From contig JBHIFL010000053.1 of the NCBI GenBank assembly GCA_046761065.1, positions 1 through 28,261 of the forward strand: DNA of 28,261 nucleotides, in the 5' to 3' direction. Below the pieces are notes generated by a model that was given only the letters and a program-made list of their open reading frames with translations, ran no database searches and was not told where the DNA came from. Shown here piece by piece: positions 1,712 through 17,633 of the stretch. The position numbers and the translations under genes are program-made. The stretch is from Candidatus Heimdallarchaeota archaeon (lineage in GTDB: Archaea; Asgardarchaeota; Wukongarchaeia; Wukongarchaeales; JBHIFL01). The first letter of the stretch is position 1, and each line of letters begins with the position of its first letter.

Positions 1712-2257
1712 TTAAATCCTTAGTACAAAATATTTCACGATTTCTTTATTCCGAACCTCAGGATGGAACAGGACTCCATATATGCCCTTCTCTTTATGCT
1801 TGATTCCTTGAATGCATTTGTCTGATGTTGCGAGAATCTCAAAAGTTTTGGAAGGCTTTATCGTGTAATTGTGGAGTTCATATGCTTTGAAGTTAGATGC
1901 GAATAAAGGATTTTCTTTCAGTGTTTTTATCTCTTTCAGCCCTATTTCTTGGCATTTTTGAAAAGCTGAATTAAAAACTGCCCCGATCACTTGAAAGCCT
2001 GCACAAATTCCTAAAATTGGCCTATTGCATTGGTCTATCCAGTCAAATCTTTTTATATTCATTCTGTATTCATTTTCCTTTAATGGAGTGCCTGAAAGAA
2101 TGATTTTACTGTAGTTGTTGATCTTTTCCGACTTTATTTCTGTGTAATGTTTGATTTCACATGGTTCAAGTTTTTCAACAATTGTAACAAGAGGCAGAAC
2201 AAATTCAGTAAATCCAAGTGATACTTTCTTTGAATTTAGATCTACAATTAAGATCAT
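1712..2257 (-). CDS. Class I glutamine amidotransferase, stand-alone glutaminase subunit
   Basis: Intact Cys-His-Glu triad: 'PILGICAGFQ' and 'GVLFHPE'; oxyanion strand 'IILSGTP'. Start overlaps the upstream dph6 stop (ATGA, 2254-2257). Confidence 0.9.
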   Translation of the reverse strand: MILIVDLNSKKVSLGFTEFVLPLVTIVEKLEPCEIKHYTEIKSEKINNYSKIILSGTPLKENEYRMNIKRFDWIDQCNRPILGICAGFQVIGAVFNSAFQKCQEIGLKEIKTLKENPLFASNFKAYELHNYTIKPSKTFEILATSDKCIQGIKHKEKGIYGVLFHPEVRNKEIVKYFVLRI

Positions 2258-2934
2258 TGGTCTACCAATCTCGCCTTTTTTATTAGAAAAATTCCTGAAT
2301 TTTCATTTGTCTGTACTTCAAATTCTAAAATCTTAATCCTCTGTTGAAAGCACGGACCATCCAACACTGTGGTTTCGATCTCTCCCCCCTCTCCCGAAGG
2401 ACTTATTTGGTACTTTTTTTGAAGGAGACCCAATTCATTAATGGTTTGCTTATCTATTTCCCTCCCAAGCCACTTCTTATCTAAAGGATAAGCAAATACT
2501 CCGGAGATTATTACTTGAAACCCACTTTCGATGATTTCTTTTAATACCTCTACTTGGTTTTTCAACCATAACGGATTAAAACACCACAGATCTAACTCAT
2601 TACAGATTTTTTGGATCCTTTCTGCCTGGTAAATTGATTCTACTGCCCCTGTAACTATTCCCTCTATTTGATAAGTTTCCTTCGCTTTCTTGATAGCTTG
2701 TGCAAGGTCTTTAAGTTCCTCTTCTTTTCTTCCTTCTGAGAATTTTTGAATTAAAGGCAATCCAATTGCTTTTGCTTGCAGTTTCGTCAGATTGATGTTT
2801 GGGGTGTGATACATATAGCTTTCTTTGTTCTTTGATAAAATAGAAATTAAACAAACAACTGTTTCCTTCTCCAAGGCTTTAAATAATGCGTAAGTCGAAT
2901 CTTTCCCCCCAGAAAACAAAACTCCCAATTTCAT
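2254..2934 (-). CDS. dph6: Diphthine--ammonia ligase (Dph6 / MJ0570 family PP-loop ATPase)
   Basis: PP-loop 'LFSGGKDS', 'SYMYH', 'TGAVESIYQ..RI', 'PLW' and 'SGEGGEIETTVLDGP' are hallmark motifs; 226 aa is the single-domain archaeal length. Confidence 0.93.
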   Translation of the reverse strand: MKLGVLFSGGKDSTYALFKALEKETVVCLISILSKNKESYMYHTPNINLTKLQAKAIGLPLIQKFSEGRKEEELKDLAQAIKKAKETYQIEGIVTGAVESIYQAERIQKICNELDLWCFNPLWLKNQVEVLKEIIESGFQVIISGVFAYPLDKKWLGREIDKQTINELGLLQKKYQISPSGEGGEIETTVLDGPCFQQRIKILEFEVQTNENSGIFLIKKARLVDQ

Positions 2935-2956: not shown

Positions 2957-2963
2957 TTAAAAA
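2957..2963 (-). promoter_or_regulatory. Putative archaeal TATA box for a leaderless dph6-GATase transcript
   Basis: TTTTTAA on the minus strand 23-29 nt upstream of the ATG at 2934, with a purine-rich BRE-like stretch upstream and no SD before the ATG. Confidence 0.45.
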
Positions 2964-3102
2964 TCCTGTTATCACTGTAGCTTACTATAAGTAAAAAAGG
3001 AATAAGGAATGATCTGAGATACTCTTGGAATTATCTTAGTCCCCTTAGACCTCGTGAAGGAGGTGATTGATTTCTTTGCGAAAAAATGTTCTACATCAGC
3101 AA

Positions 3103-3921
3103 CTAATTATGAGCCCTAAGCCACTCAATAAATTTGATCATTTGATTAACCATATATTCATGATATTTCTTACCTTTATCAGGCGAGGCTTTTGTTGGAT
3201 CCCCCATGACTCCGGATTTAGTAAGTTCGGCTTCTTCTTTACTGTTAAAGGCGATATCGATCTTTTCGACGGGTCTATATGGATCAAGCATAAAGAATGG
3301 AGAGAACTTTGTTTCAAACGGAGGGATTTCCCTTATAATTTTGTCTGATCGCACCAACTCAGGGAACTTATACATTATGTGACTTGTTTCAATCTCTTCG
3401 GCATGGTACATGTGTTCCGATTCCCGCTTGGCTTTAGCAAACTTACTGCTAATCTTGAATGGATCAACTACGGCAAAAAAGATATCAGGGAATTCTTCTT
3501 CATGAAGACTTTTAATCGCTATATTAAGTGCAGGAAGGTTCGCACTGCGATGTCCGTTAATGAGGATCACCTTTTTAAAGCCAGTCTTAGCCAAGCTTCG
3601 ACAGATATCTTTGGTTACTTCAATCAATGTTTCTGAGCGTAATGTAATCGTTCCTGGGAAGCCTAAGTGATGTGGACTGTCTCCGAACCACAGAGGAGGG
3701 GTGGTTAAAACACCCGATTTTTTTGCTACATCTTCCGCCAAAGCAATAGCCGCGTATGTGTCACAGCCAGTGGGTAGATGATGGCCATGCTGTTCCGTAG
3801 ACCCAATTGGCACCAAGATGATATCATTTTCCATGAGATATTCCGCAATATCCGGCCATGTTTGTTCCTGAATCCAAACTGAGCTATTTCTCAATTTATT
3901 CACAACTCCTTTAAACTCCAA
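3103..3921 (-). CDS. Creatininase-family amidohydrolase (creatininase/ArfB/MftE family)
   Basis: 'PIGSTEQHGHHLPTGCD', 'SPHHLGFPGTI', 'INGH', 'HAEEIETS' and 'SGVMGDPTKAS..KG'. Confidence 0.93.
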   Translation of the reverse strand: MEFKGVVNKLRNSSVWIQEQTWPDIAEYLMENDIILVPIGSTEQHGHHLPTGCDTYAAIALAEDVAKKSGVLTTPPLWFGDSPHHLGFPGTITLRSETLIEVTKDICRSLAKTGFKKVILINGHRSANLPALNIAIKSLHEEEFPDIFFAVVDPFKISSKFAKAKRESEHMYHAEEIETSHIMYKFPELVRSDKIIREIPPFETKFSPFFMLDPYRPVEKIDIAFNSKEEAELTKSGVMGDPTKASPDKGKKYHEYMVNQMIKFIEWLRAHN

Positions 3922-4147: not shown

Positions 4148-5875
4148 TCAAAATGTAGCTATTCTTAGCAGTCTTTCCGATTTAAGCACCTCTGCAAGAT
4201 TGGCGACTGTTTCTTCACGTTCACGAAATAGCCAATACGCTTCTTTTAGTGTAATTGTTTGGAATTTAATTTTACTCAGTGGCGGCATCTGGGCGAGTGT
4301 ATCCACATCAACATTAATCACATTCGCGATTTTGGAGTAGCCCCCAGTTGTTTGGCGATCAGCCATCATAATGATTGGTTGCCCATCCCCAGGAACTTGA
4401 ATCGCGCCGAGGGGGATCGCTTCAGAGATAATATCTGTTCCGGCGATATTCTCGATCTTAGGTCCTTGGAGTCGATACCCCATTCGATCTGATTTGACTG
4501 TAATAGTATATTGCGCCGACAAAAACGTGTCCAAGCCTTCCGGGGTATAGTATTCCTCCTGGGGACCCAAGAGAACTCGAATATTAGCTTCCAATTCATA
4601 TGAGGGAATCATCTCAAGTGGGATTTGTATTCCCTCTAGAGGTTCTAATCTATACGAGGGACTTTCCCCCTTAAGTATGTCACCACTTCTTAAACGTCGC
4701 CCAGTTAAGCCTCCTATTCGTGATCCGACATGGGTCGAACAGCTTCCCAAGATTTTAGGTACCTGGATTCCTCCAGTCAAAGCGATGTACGCTCTTGCCC
4801 CACTTTTCCATCCTCCAAAAGAGATGATATCCCCGGGATATGCTAGGAAGGTCTGCCACATCGGTGTCGGCTCATTATTAAGTAATGGTGACAGATTTCC
4901 CCCCGTAATAGCTAAAAGCGTCTTGTTTAGAACTTCAAGAGTTGGTCCCATTATTGTAACTTCAAGACAGCCCTGATCTTCGGCATTTCCAACCAATAAG
5001 TTTGCGATTCGTGCTGCATAGCGGTCCATCGTTCCAGAAACTGAAACTCCATATTTTTGATAGAATGGTCTGCCCAGATCTTGAATGGTGGTGAATAATC
5101 CTGGATTTGTGACTCTGAAGATCAGTGTTCCTATGGCCTCTCGTGAACTTAGCAGGGTTGTTGGCCTCTTAAGTTTCTCTTTAGACTCCAGTTCCTTACC
5201 CAATTGTTTAAATTCATTTTCACTTATTTTCATGAACTTAACCCGATCTCCAACAGACAATAAGGCTGGTGGGTGCTTTTTCACGTCAAATAATTGGATT
5301 GGTGTTCTTCCAATAATCTGCCAACCACCTGGACTCGAAACAGGATAGATTCCAGTTAAATTTCCTGCAATTCCCACCGATCCGCCTGGGACAGACGTTC
5401 GTGGTGTTTTTAACCGGGGGGTAGCAATCTTCGGGGATAAACCTCCAAGATAAGGATACCCAGCAAGAAAGCCAACGAGTCCCACCCAATATTCCCCTGC
5501 TTGGTGAAGCGCTATCACCTCTTCAGGGCTCAAACCATGGTATTCTGCCACAGACTCGAGATCAGGACCATACTCTCCTCCATATACGGTTGGAATCTCC
5601 ACTCTTTTTGCTCGGCGTAATTGCTGGACCCTTTGTTTTCGTAATAACATGTCAATTCTTTCTTGTAGCTCACTTGCGGTGACCTTCAATGGATCATAAT
5701 TCAAACAGAGGGAACAAAATGTTGGGATCAACTCGCGGAGTCCAGTGATCTCCTGTTCTTCCAGAGCCAAGAAGGTACTGACCACCTTTTGATTAATTTC
5801 TTCTGCTATCTCCTTTCCAAACTCCACAAAAAGGTAATTGTCTCCTGCTAAGCGAAAGTGAATTTTTGTGGCCAC
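4148..5875 (-). CDS. pxpBC: Fused 5-oxoprolinase subunits B and C (PxpB-PxpC; KipI/KipA, allophanate hydrolase subunit 1+2 family)
   Basis: N-half 'IPTVYGGEYGPDL', 'GFLAGYPYLGGL', 'GGSVGIAG..TGIYPVSSPGGWQIIGRT'; C-half 'TTIQDLGR', 'SDRMGYRL', 'GAIQVPGDGQPIIMMADRQTTGGY'. One continuous ORF with a GTG start and GGAG upstream. Confidence 0.93.
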   Translation of the reverse strand: MATKIHFRLAGDNYLFVEFGKEIAEEINQKVVSTFLALEEQEITGLRELIPTFCSLCLNYDPLKVTASELQERIDMLLRKQRVQQLRRAKRVEIPTVYGGEYGPDLESVAEYHGLSPEEVIALHQAGEYWVGLVGFLAGYPYLGGLSPKIATPRLKTPRTSVPGGSVGIAGNLTGIYPVSSPGGWQIIGRTPIQLFDVKKHPPALLSVGDRVKFMKISENEFKQLGKELESKEKLKRPTTLLSSREAIGTLIFRVTNPGLFTTIQDLGRPFYQKYGVSVSGTMDRYAARIANLLVGNAEDQGCLEVTIMGPTLEVLNKTLLAITGGNLSPLLNNEPTPMWQTFLAYPGDIISFGGWKSGARAYIALTGGIQVPKILGSCSTHVGSRIGGLTGRRLRSGDILKGESPSYRLEPLEGIQIPLEMIPSYELEANIRVLLGPQEEYYTPEGLDTFLSAQYTITVKSDRMGYRLQGPKIENIAGTDIISEAIPLGAIQVPGDGQPIIMMADRQTTGGYSKIANVINVDVDTLAQMPPLSKIKFQTITLKEAYWLFREREETVANLAEVLKSERLLRIATF

Positions 5876-15933: not shown

Positions 15934-16824
15934 TTAAAGTTCATCTCTCAACTTCAGAATATGAGCAATATTCGCATTCTCATCAATAACTGGCCTGATT
16001 TCCCCCATTTTCGATGTGAAGAGGGTCGCGACACCGGGTCCATGGCCTGCAAGAATACAGTTGCTATGAACAACAATGCCAACAGTGATAGCTCCCGTCC
16101 TGAAGATGGGTCCATAACTGGTGTCTGCATTTATAATAGCAACGAGATCGCCGAAGCGGAGATCTTCAAGACCGAACTCATTAACTGTCTTTTCATCAAA
16201 AAGGGTAATATCATAATCACCCGAAGCAACTTGGGGGCTTCCAAGGCCTGAGCCCATGATGGCTGCTGGAATTTTATGGGTGACTGGCACCTCTAGCTTG
16301 CCATTGACGATCTTAGGGTCAAGGTTGTCAAGAAAACCCGGATCCATATTGAATACTTTCACTTCAGGTATGTCTACGAGTTGGAGACCAACACCATATG
16401 CTTTCACCATCACCCGATCCTCTATTACTAACTTTTTCATCACCTCTGATGGGAAATCCACCATCACGTGTTCTATTCCACCGTGCTTCCCTACAACGAC
16501 CCCCTTCTCACCCTTTGCATCCCCCTTCACAACCATCGCTTCGTTCCCTATACAACTTAACACATTTAGCGCTCGACTCTGCCCCTGGGGTATCCTAAGG
16601 TCTTTGTCCCGATTTTCCAAGCTGACTCCTGGTTCTACATGGTCTGCCATCCATCCACAAGCGGGGTCACCTACTCTGATGTTGTAAGTGATACCTCCCA
16701 CTCCAGGCAGAATGGCGGGTTCTCCATCCGCAGATACTCTATATATGCCAGCGCCTATAACGGGGCTTACAACCTCTCCAATAACCGAAATCTTTACAAG
16801 TTTATCTTTATTAGTACGGAGCAT
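15934..16824 (-). CDS. DUF4438 family protein (TM1086-like)
   Basis: 'MLRTNKDKLV.ISV.GEV', 'PGVGGITYNIRVGD', 'DHVEPGVS', 'GKHGGIEHV', 'MGSGLG', 'GDYDI' and 'AGHGPGV' fit my recollection of this family. Confidence 0.82.
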   Translation of the reverse strand: MLRTNKDKLVKISVIGEVVSPVIGAGIYRVSADGEPAILPGVGGITYNIRVGDPACGWMADHVEPGVSLENRDKDLRIPQGQSRALNVLSCIGNEAMVVKGDAKGEKGVVVGKHGGIEHVMVDFPSEVMKKLVIEDRVMVKAYGVGLQLVDIPEVKVFNMDPGFLDNLDPKIVNGKLEVPVTHKIPAAIMGSGLGSPQVASGDYDITLFDEKTVNEFGLEDLRFGDLVAIINADTSYGPIFRTGAITVGIVVHSNCILAGHGPGVATLFTSKMGEIRPVIDENANIAHILKLRDEL

Positions 16825-16904
16825 TTTAAGTCAGAGTTAAGTATTTAAATGACTTATTAAACGTTTCTTCTTAAGAAAAATATAATAAGGCTCGTTTAGC
16901 TCGA

Positions 16905-17633
16905 CTAGGGACCTAAGATTTTTACTTCGCTCAAATCTAAGTTATTTTTTACTATTAGTATATGCCCAAATTTAATTTCGTCCCATTCTTCGTCTGTTAA
17001 GGGTTCTGAACAGACAAATACCACGGCCTCATCTAAATTTGAGGGTTTTTTTTCGAGTTTATAAAGTGTGTATGCATCCTGGGGGCTTTGAGAATATCTA
17101 AATGCGTAAAGTGTGATTCCATCTGATAATAGGAAGGTTAATCCTGTGTAATTTCTGCTTATAACTTCTTTAATAGCATCTTTCACGCCTTTGATTACAT
17201 CGTTGTTGTTGCTTTCGATGTTCTGAAGGACCCAATAAAAATAAACTTCAGAATCTGTTTCACCTTCGAGTTGTTGCTTATATTTTGGTTTCAAAAGTGA
17301 ATAGAGATGGTTTCTATTGACAGCTCCATTATGGATGAATAACCAATCATTTTCTTGAAATGGATGGGAATTCTTTTGGGAACGAGGGGCTATAGATAAC
17401 TTTCTAACGTGTACCAATATAATCTGAGATTTAACTTCTTTGGAAACTCGGCTCAATTGACTTGCTGGGTCATGTGCAGGGATTCCCTCTTTAAAAAATT
17501 GGCCCTTGCCATTTTCATACCATCCTATGCCCCATCCGTCCGGATTTGTTCTTGAAAATTTCTCTTTAAATTGCTCGATTAAGGACGAGAATTTGCCTGG
17601 CTTATTTGCAACCACTCCTAAGAGCCTACACAT
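16905..17633 (-). CDS. Class II (Ntn) glutamine amidotransferase, YafJ/EgtC/Dug3 family
   Basis: N-terminal nucleophile 'MCRLLG', 'NPDGWGIGWY', 'HVRK', 'NSHPF', 'FIHNG', 'GETDSE' and 'SEPLT'; SD GAGGT. Confidence 0.93.
   Translation of the reverse strand: MCRLLGVVANKPGKFSSLIEQFKEKFSRTNPDGWGIGWYENGKGQFFKEGIPAHDPASQLSRVSKEVKSQIILVHVRKLSIAPRSQKNSHPFQENDWLFIHNGAVNRNHLYSLLKPKYKQQLEGETDSEVYFYWVLQNIESNNNDVIKGVKDAIKEVISRNYTGLTFLLSDGITLYAFRYSQSPQDAYTLYKLEKKPSNLDEAVVFVCSEPLTDEEWDEIKFGHILIVKNNLDLSEVKILGP

Follow-up and report, generated by a model that had tools for sequence, protein, structure and literature searches.

The 28,261-nucleotide contig examined here (JBHIFL010000053.1, hereafter 'the window'), from a 4.4-Mb metagenome-assembled genome (MAG) of a Heimdallarchaeota archaeon, carries on its minus strand two intact and adjoining reading frames, of which the first encodes a homologue of the diphthine-ammonia ligase Dph6 and the second a small class I glutamine amidotransferase (GATase; Table 1). 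An initial annotation of this DNA had noted that the dph6 stop codon and the GATase start codon overlap as ATGA; that arrangement is present, and the identical 4-nt overlap recurs in 26 of 28 related loci in which it was measured, so it is not a product of chance. Because 168 bp separate the pair from a creatininase-family gene upstream, and 162 bp from a gene resembling dCMP deaminase downstream, it has the appearance of a bicistronic unit. Archaea and eukaryotes share diphthamide as a conserved modification of EF-2, and the enzyme that completes its synthesis is listed as an ammonia ligase (EC 6.3.1.14); the chemistry of Dph6, in which the carboxylate of diphthine is adenylated, is established, and the solo enzyme is described as ammonia-dependent.

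Table 1. Features of the dph6-GATase locus, in window coordinates
Feature	Position	Strand	Basis
dph6, diphthine-ammonia ligase (synthetase subunit), GATase-partnered subtype, 226 aa	2254..2934	-	TIGR03679, PF01902, clade
Class I glutamine amidotransferase (GATase), proposed glutaminase subunit, 181 aa	1712..2257	-	PF00117, clade, AF2 fold
ATGA stop/start overlap (dph6 end, GATase start), putative translational coupling	2254..2257	-	sequence and conservation
A/T-rich TATA-like element ATTTTTAA, putative promoter, 23-30 nt before the dph6 ATG	2957..2964	-	sequence only
PP-loop SGGKDS of Dph6, residues 8-13	2896..2913	-	sequence
Dph6-specific EGGEIE motif, residues 182-187 (PF0828 E183-E188)	2374..2391	-	motif definition in PMC3541065
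Dph6 residues 104-126, core of predicted GATase-binding surface and subtype signature	2557..2625	-	complex model, subtype positions
GATase residues 12-25, family-specific N-terminal helix, predicted Dph6 contact	2185..2224	-	complex-model interface
Nucleophile Cys85 codon of GATase (GICAG)	2003..2005	-	kept in 135/136 top family members
His165-Pro166-Glu167 codons of GATase (HPE, rest of triad)	1757..1765	-	invariant in 136/136 top members, also in alignment A2

Identity and conservation of the gene pair

The assignment of the upstream gene product is supported both by its overall similarity to Dph6 and by its retention of the residues that distinguish that enzyme from its paralogues. The protein scores 286.2 bits against the TIGR03679 equivalog model (cut-off 197.3) and 250 bits against PF01902, and its residues 181-188 read GEGGEIET, which corresponds to the EGGE-x-E type of motif rather than to the ENGE-x-H type of the DUF71-B12 group. 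That motif, together with the residues of Pyrococcus furiosus PF0828 involved in EF-2 recognition, was defined previously (PMC3541065); all nine of the latter (S44, Y45, E78, Y103, Q104, A149, E183, E186 and E188) are kept in the window protein, where they align to S39, Y40, E73, Y102, Q103, A148, E182, E185 and E187. A second DUF71 gene in the host genome, on contig C207, falls below the Dph6 cut-off, and the window gene is thus the only Dph6-level member of the family in that genome. The remainder of the diphthamide pathway, whose presence had been suggested as a check on the initial annotation, was found on other contigs, with Dph2 on C17, Dph5 on C5 and EF-2 on C76; the EF-2 product carries the target-histidine motif HEDAIHRG (HxDxxHRG), as read after removal of a 33-nt insert within the gene.

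The downstream protein is clearly a class I GATase, matching PF00117 with 74.3 bits (cut-off 22.8), and its AlphaFold2 (AF2) model (predicted local distance difference test, pLDDT, of 95) superimposes on the GATase 2a9v with a template modelling (TM) score of 0.85. It falls below the cut-off of every NCBIfam equivalog; the best matches are to GuaAA models, at 79.1 bits against a cut-off of 198 (NF001975) and 68.4 against 172 (TIGR00888), and among the Pfam and NCBIfam models matched there is none specific to a GATase linked to Dph6. The Cys-His-Glu triad ascribed to it could be read directly from the sequence as Cys85, His165 and Glu167, as could the N-terminus ('IVDLN...') and 'SGTP' strand that had been pointed out as unusual. 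Because the cysteine is kept in 135 of the 136 top family members, and the histidine and glutamate in all of them, the triad is evidently under strong selection. Near its N-terminus, L14, E18 and P22 are nearly invariant in the family alignment, in a segment that is helical (residues 14-28) in the AF2 model. The window GATase has many close relatives, whose identity to it is 53-68% among the 120 listed, and 259 clusters, defined at 50% identity, were recovered by a profile search at E<=1e-30, such that the family comprises at least that number.

Examination of the loci from which those relatives are derived bore out the expectation that, were the two proteins partners, their genes would be linked elsewhere. 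Dph6 was found directly upstream of the GATase, on the same strand, at all 30 readable loci, comprising: (i) nine of nine loci from Bathyarchaeia, a 'Thorarchaeota' MAG, Altiarchaeales and other archaea; (ii) 19 further hits from a sample of 251 Bathyarchaeia genomes (a twentieth, G400, being identical to locus L041 and already counted among the first nine); and (iii) both of the divergent representatives with sufficient flanking sequence. On two very short contigs, the GATase is preceded by what resembles the C-terminal end of Dph6, terminating in ATGA. The other neighbours of the pair vary between loci. Three of five other carrier genomes have no DUF71 gene besides the partnered Dph6, and carrier genomes also possess the usual TrpG, CarA, HisH, GuaA and PyrG.

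In a number of archaea the two proteins are joined within a single polypeptide. A search among longer proteins identified 16 clusters of Dph6-linker-GATase fusions of approximately 438 residues, and further examples in the GATase profile search brought the overall number to at least 22 fused clusters. Five fusions were scanned with Pfam, and in each the Dph6 domain (residues 1 to about 222) is followed by a linker and then by the GATase, in the same order as the genes of the operon. In a fusion from Methanothrix (MCX6681132.1, P0123), the only one compared with TIGR03679, the Dph6 half exceeds the cut-off of that model; the protein is named simply 'diphthine--ammonia ligase' by NCBI. As a separate observation, a Dph6 match in the Bathyarchaeia sample (G449:C125:674-1309) lies within an open frame of 564 residues, which may represent another kind of Dph6 fusion.

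In a phylogenetic tree, the linked, fused and Cys-less members of the GATase family form a single clade (support of 98 in the Shimodaira-Hasegawa-like approximate likelihood-ratio test, SH-aLRT), separate from the GuaA N-terminal domain, TrpG, CarA, HisH and PyrG of the same genomes and from a second orphan GATase family, which is the outcome that would be anticipated for a dedicated subunit. Identification of the protein as GuaAA was rejected on the basis of that separate clade, of a score of 79 bits against a cut-off of 198, and of the presence of a fused GuaA in the host.

A partner in some other pathway was sought both in the window and across the host genome. Among window reading frames of at least 100 residues outside the pair (excluding nested and antisense ones), Pfam detected no GuaAB, TrpE, PabB, CarB or HisF, in keeping with what had first been noted; the remaining genes encode PxpABC, HyuAB, a Liv-type transporter, peptidases and other enzymes, none of which is a known client of a GATase. 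Besides a fused GuaA of 517 residues and PyrG, the host genome encodes a further orphan GATase on contig C16, such that the window protein is not its sole GuaAA- or TrpG-like protein, and TrpE/PabB, HisF and CarB were not detected in the 91%-complete assembly. Service to any of these last three was rejected on that basis, which leaves Dph6 as the one candidate for the role of client of the GATase. TrpG, HisH and CarA were likewise not detected in the same assembly; collectively, these absences hint at amino-acid auxotrophy, which would fit the importer and amidohydrolase genes in the window. The orphan GATase on C16 (C16:35471-36085; L003:1483-2100, minus strand) is a GuaAA-like protein of 205 residues that scores 110 bits, below the cut-off, and has no obvious partner; its relatives in Bathyarchaeia (L084 and L087) form a small clade near TrpG.

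A partnered subtype of Dph6 and a predicted complex

Partnered and fused Dph6 proteins are separated in the Dph6 tree, with support of 99-100, from the solo Dph6 proteins found in Bathyarchaeia and in seven other Asgard genomes; the window protein lies within the partnered clade, adjoining the 'Thorarchaeota' copy. The partnered form displays a signature of A104, Q108, W117, C118, F119 and N120, whereas solo proteins (including those of PDB entries 2d13 and 3rjz) mostly contain, at the same positions, K/R, D/E, K/R/E, S/V, I/Y and A/T. Within the partnered clade are nested two lineages from which the GATase has been lost, and in both of them W117 has been changed to glutamate or histidine. On the strength of these sequence comparisons, the Dph6 subtype appears to have co-evolved with the GATase.

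Structure prediction provided a further line of evidence, in that the modelled Dph6-GATase complex received a score of 0.92, well above the 0.27 of the best of three controls, and gave the kind of predicted interface that the initial annotation had called for. For calibration, 58 of 80 solved complexes and 2 of 110 mismatched pairs attained a score of 0.92, a yardstick that is rough in the present case because the alignments were self-built. The modelling runs agreed in at least 94% of contacts, with pLDDT values of at least 94 for the partners. A PDB search returned Dph6 only as a solo protein, and a fold search with the AF2 model of the Methanothrix fusion (predicted TM score of 0.87, with a disordered linker) returned single-domain matches only, with no solved chain covering both fusion domains; the complex score is therefore not the recall of a known complex.

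The surface predicted for Dph6 comprises residues 19-24, 94, 101 and 104-126, and lies beside a conserved GAVESxYQ segment. That predicted for the GATase comprises the helix of residues 12-25, the oxyanion strand that follows SGT (58-60), residues 103-107, 126 and 128, and Glu167 to Arg169, such that the model would direct the active-site face of the GATase toward Dph6. Nine of 30 family-conserved GATase residues fall in the predicted interface (p=0.002). Correspondingly, 7 of the 20 most subtype-specific positions of Dph6 fall within its 23-residue predicted interface (Fisher p=0.002), and the top three (A104, W117 and F119) are all located there, with the qualification that these statistics ignore shared ancestry, the partnered Dph6 proteins constituting essentially one clade.

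Proposed function and competing explanations

The observations described above are most readily accommodated if the pair constitutes a two-subunit, glutamine-hydrolysing diphthamide synthetase in which the GATase supplies Dph6 with ammonia, a reading to which we assign a probability of about three in four from the sequences and the complex model. Dph6 would adenylate the diphthine carboxylate on the histidine of EF-2; the 181-residue GATase would bind Dph6 beside its active site and hydrolyse glutamine by means of Cys85, His165 and Glu167; and the released ammonia would be passed to the acyl-adenylate on Dph6, much as it passes from GuaAA to GuaAB in archaeal GMP synthetase. From the same sequence evidence, carrier archaea would probably take the last nitrogen of diphthamide from glutamine rather than from free ammonia. 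The glutaminase activity, the transfer of ammonia and the identity of EF-2 as the substrate of the partnered subtype are, in this proposal, inferred.

The closest known system is the two-subunit archaeal GMP synthetase (GuaAA and GuaAB; Methanocaldococcus jannaschii, PDB 2lxn and 7d40; Pyrococcus horikoshii, 1wl8 and 2d7j), in which a small stand-alone class I GATase likewise serves an adenylating enzyme of the PP-loop type, and for which split and fused forms also exist. GuaAA-type proteins are the nearest to the window GATase, both in sequence (E=3e-17) and in fold (TM scores of 0.73-0.85). Unlike that system, the synthetase here is Dph6 (DUF71) and the proposed substrate is a protein side chain rather than xanthosine monophosphate, while the GATase differs from GuaAA in its family-specific N-terminal helix, its SGT(P/A)LK strand and its own clade. 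Solo Dph6 proteins (P. furiosus PF0828, PDB 3rjz and 3rk1; P. horikoshii PH1257, 2d13, matched by the window protein with E=3.5e-58; and yeast YLR143W) share the fold, the PP-loop, the EGGE-x-E motif and the EF-2-recognition residues; they function without a glutaminase and contain K/R104, E/D108 and K/E117 in place of the A104, Q108 and W117 of partnered proteins.

A physical association between a glutamine amidotransferase and a DUF71 domain has been described before, in the form of fusions of AsnB (GAT-II and asparagine-synthetase domains) to DUF71 in Methanohalophilus mahii, Methanosalsum zhilinae and 'Ca. Nanosalinarum' (de Crecy-Lagard et al. 2012, PMC3541065). The same study proposed that the source of ammonia for Dph6 varies between organisms, and discussed fusions to the AsnB GAT-II domain and to RidA; a class I GATase partner is not mentioned in it. 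Those fusions place a class II (Ntn) GATase and an additional PP-loop domain N-terminal to DUF71, whereas in the present system a class I triad GATase lies downstream or C-terminal, with nothing between. A literature search, in which subscription journals were outside the coverage, found no paper on a pairing of Dph6 with a class I GATase, in agreement with the earlier statement that no characterised example was known; such a partner is absent also from a 2018 paper on the loss of dph genes. The second DUF71 gene of the host (C207; L007:184-1829) encodes a protein of 237 residues that scores 127 bits against the Dph6 model and resembles TTX_0299 and PAB0415. It overlaps the end of a gene for an AsnB-like asparagine-synthetase C-domain, on a contig that stops before any GAT-II domain, and looks like a split version of the fusions described in 2012.

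Several considerations weigh against a glutamine-dependent synthetase of this kind, or against its belonging to the host. Yeast Dph6 is reportedly active with ammonium, and most archaea possess a solo Dph6: within the Bathyarchaeia sample, Dph6 exceeds the cut-off in 202 of 251 genomes while the GATase is present in 20, corresponding to about 10% of the Dph6-bearing members. The host is the only one of 400 genomes of its phylum (Asgard, Heimdall/Hod type) to contain the GATase. Its MAG, at 91.5% completeness, carries 8.2% contamination, and misbinning of the window contig is possible. The common ancestry that underlies the subtype statistics must be added to this list, as must the loss of the nucleophilic cysteine in a minority of the family (a Bathyarchaeia subclade, L067-L071, together with L059 and P0004), in which the gene pairing is nonetheless kept.

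That last observation is also an argument for an explanation in which Dph6 uses free ammonia and its GATase-like partner acts chiefly in a structural or regulatory capacity (as a stabiliser, an aid to EF-2 docking or an allosteric switch). The Cys-less proteins, in which the nucleophile region reads GxGSG or GVDTG, retain His-Pro-Glu, the interface residues and the ATGA overlap, and interface residues are conserved more strictly than the cysteine in alignment A2; since these candidate pseudo-glutaminase subunits keep their pairing with Dph6, binding may count for something beyond ammonia supply, which suggests that the partner also plays a structural part. Against a mainly structural role stand the full triad of the window protein and of nearly all top family members, in which His-Pro-Glu is invariant, and a predicted interface that sets the active-site face (residues 58-60 and 167-169) against Dph6, as transfer of ammonia would need; we therefore regard this explanation as unlikely. 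The possibility that partnered Dph6 and its GATase instead amidate a substrate other than diphthine (a small molecule or another protein) derives some encouragement from the distinct clade and signature of the partnered form, from at least one genome (G558) that possesses both solo-type and partnered Dph6 above the cut-off, and from the existence of DUF71 paralogues with other predicted roles (PMC3541065). It is disfavoured, to the point of being rather improbable, by the equivalog score of the window protein (286 bits), its EGGE-x-E motif and complete set of EF-2-recognition residues, its position as the only Dph6-level gene beside Dph2, Dph5 and a modifiable EF-2, and the sole-DUF71 status of the partnered gene in three of five other carriers.

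Least credible, and in our estimation very improbable indeed, is that the GATase is a misplaced subunit A of GMP synthase, or the glutaminase of some other pathway, that lies beside dph6 by chance. The protein does find its best matches among GuaAA proteins (79 bits; PDB 1wl8, E=3e-17) and its homologues are labelled 'GMP synthase-like', but its score is far below the GuaAA cut-off, the GuaA of the host is fused, and the family forms a clade of its own; an accidental neighbour, moreover, would not be expected to accompany Dph6 at every readable locus and to be fused to it in others, in a host genome with no orphan synthase.

If the two proteins do form a glutamine-hydrolysing synthetase, the consequences would be threefold: (i) the EC 6.3.1.14 enzyme would gain a glutamine-hydrolysing form, defined by its dedicated glutaminase subunit; (ii) hundreds of proteins presently termed 'GMP synthase-like' or 'hypothetical' would receive a name, and the annotation of the fused proteins would be corrected; and (iii) a protein-modifying member would be added to the ammonia-channelling PP-loop amidotransferases.

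Distribution of the cassette and additional observations

Dph6 itself is missing from most of the 400 genomes of the host phylum, in line with an earlier report that the majority of Asgard archaea have lost their dph genes (PMC6143161). Since the window Dph6 belongs to the partnered clade and the GATase is present in a single genome of that phylum, the dph6-GATase cassette was probably acquired horizontally by the host, unless the contig has been misbinned. The window contig (C53) does not stand out from the genome in its tetranucleotide composition, by which it ranks 27 of 127; a search for relatives of a DUF362 gene in the window gave no placement of the contig, the family being multi-copy and the host lineage isolated. 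Given its patchy distribution, the cassette would be useful for tracing gene transfer and might also point to organisms that live where ammonium is scarce. That the host is an Asgard archaeon follows from its CTP synthase, which clusters, at no less than 90% identity, with proteins labelled Heimdallarchaeota and Hodarchaeota; archaea of the Heimdall/Hod type are considered close to the ancestor of eukaryotes.

These several strands can be drawn into a broader and more tentative scheme, which we consider doubtful as a whole. Archaea would possess two interchangeable diphthamide synthetases, one a solo, ammonia-using Dph6 and the other an obligate heterodimer or fusion of Dph6 and glutaminase; the residues A104, Q108, W117, C118, F119 and N120 would constitute a code that predicts which form is present; the cassette would move horizontally and would have replaced a solo Dph6 in the Heimdall/Hod-type Asgard host; and some glutaminases would have decayed to Cys-less pseudo-enzymes that Dph6 still needs structurally.

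Three further features of the host sequence were noted. Within the window, the minus strand between positions 4148 and 15604 encodes in a row PxpBC (CT_C_D and CT_A_B domains), PxpA (LamB/YcsF), HyuA, HyuB and a five-gene Liv-type ABC importer, and the creatininase-family gene (3103-3921) adjoins that row. On the same strand (15934-17633), the gene for a stand-alone class II GATase_4 protein (YafJ-like, 242 residues) lies directly upstream of that for a DUF4438 protein. Finally, the only EF-2 gene of the host (C76:15157-17628; L052:1762-1840) is interrupted by the 33-nt insert mentioned above, which contains an in-frame TAA and lies inside the sequence DTPG|HVDF; its excision restores that motif exactly, and the corresponding RNA forms a hairpin between two 3-nt bulges, in an arrangement resembling a bulge-helix-bulge.

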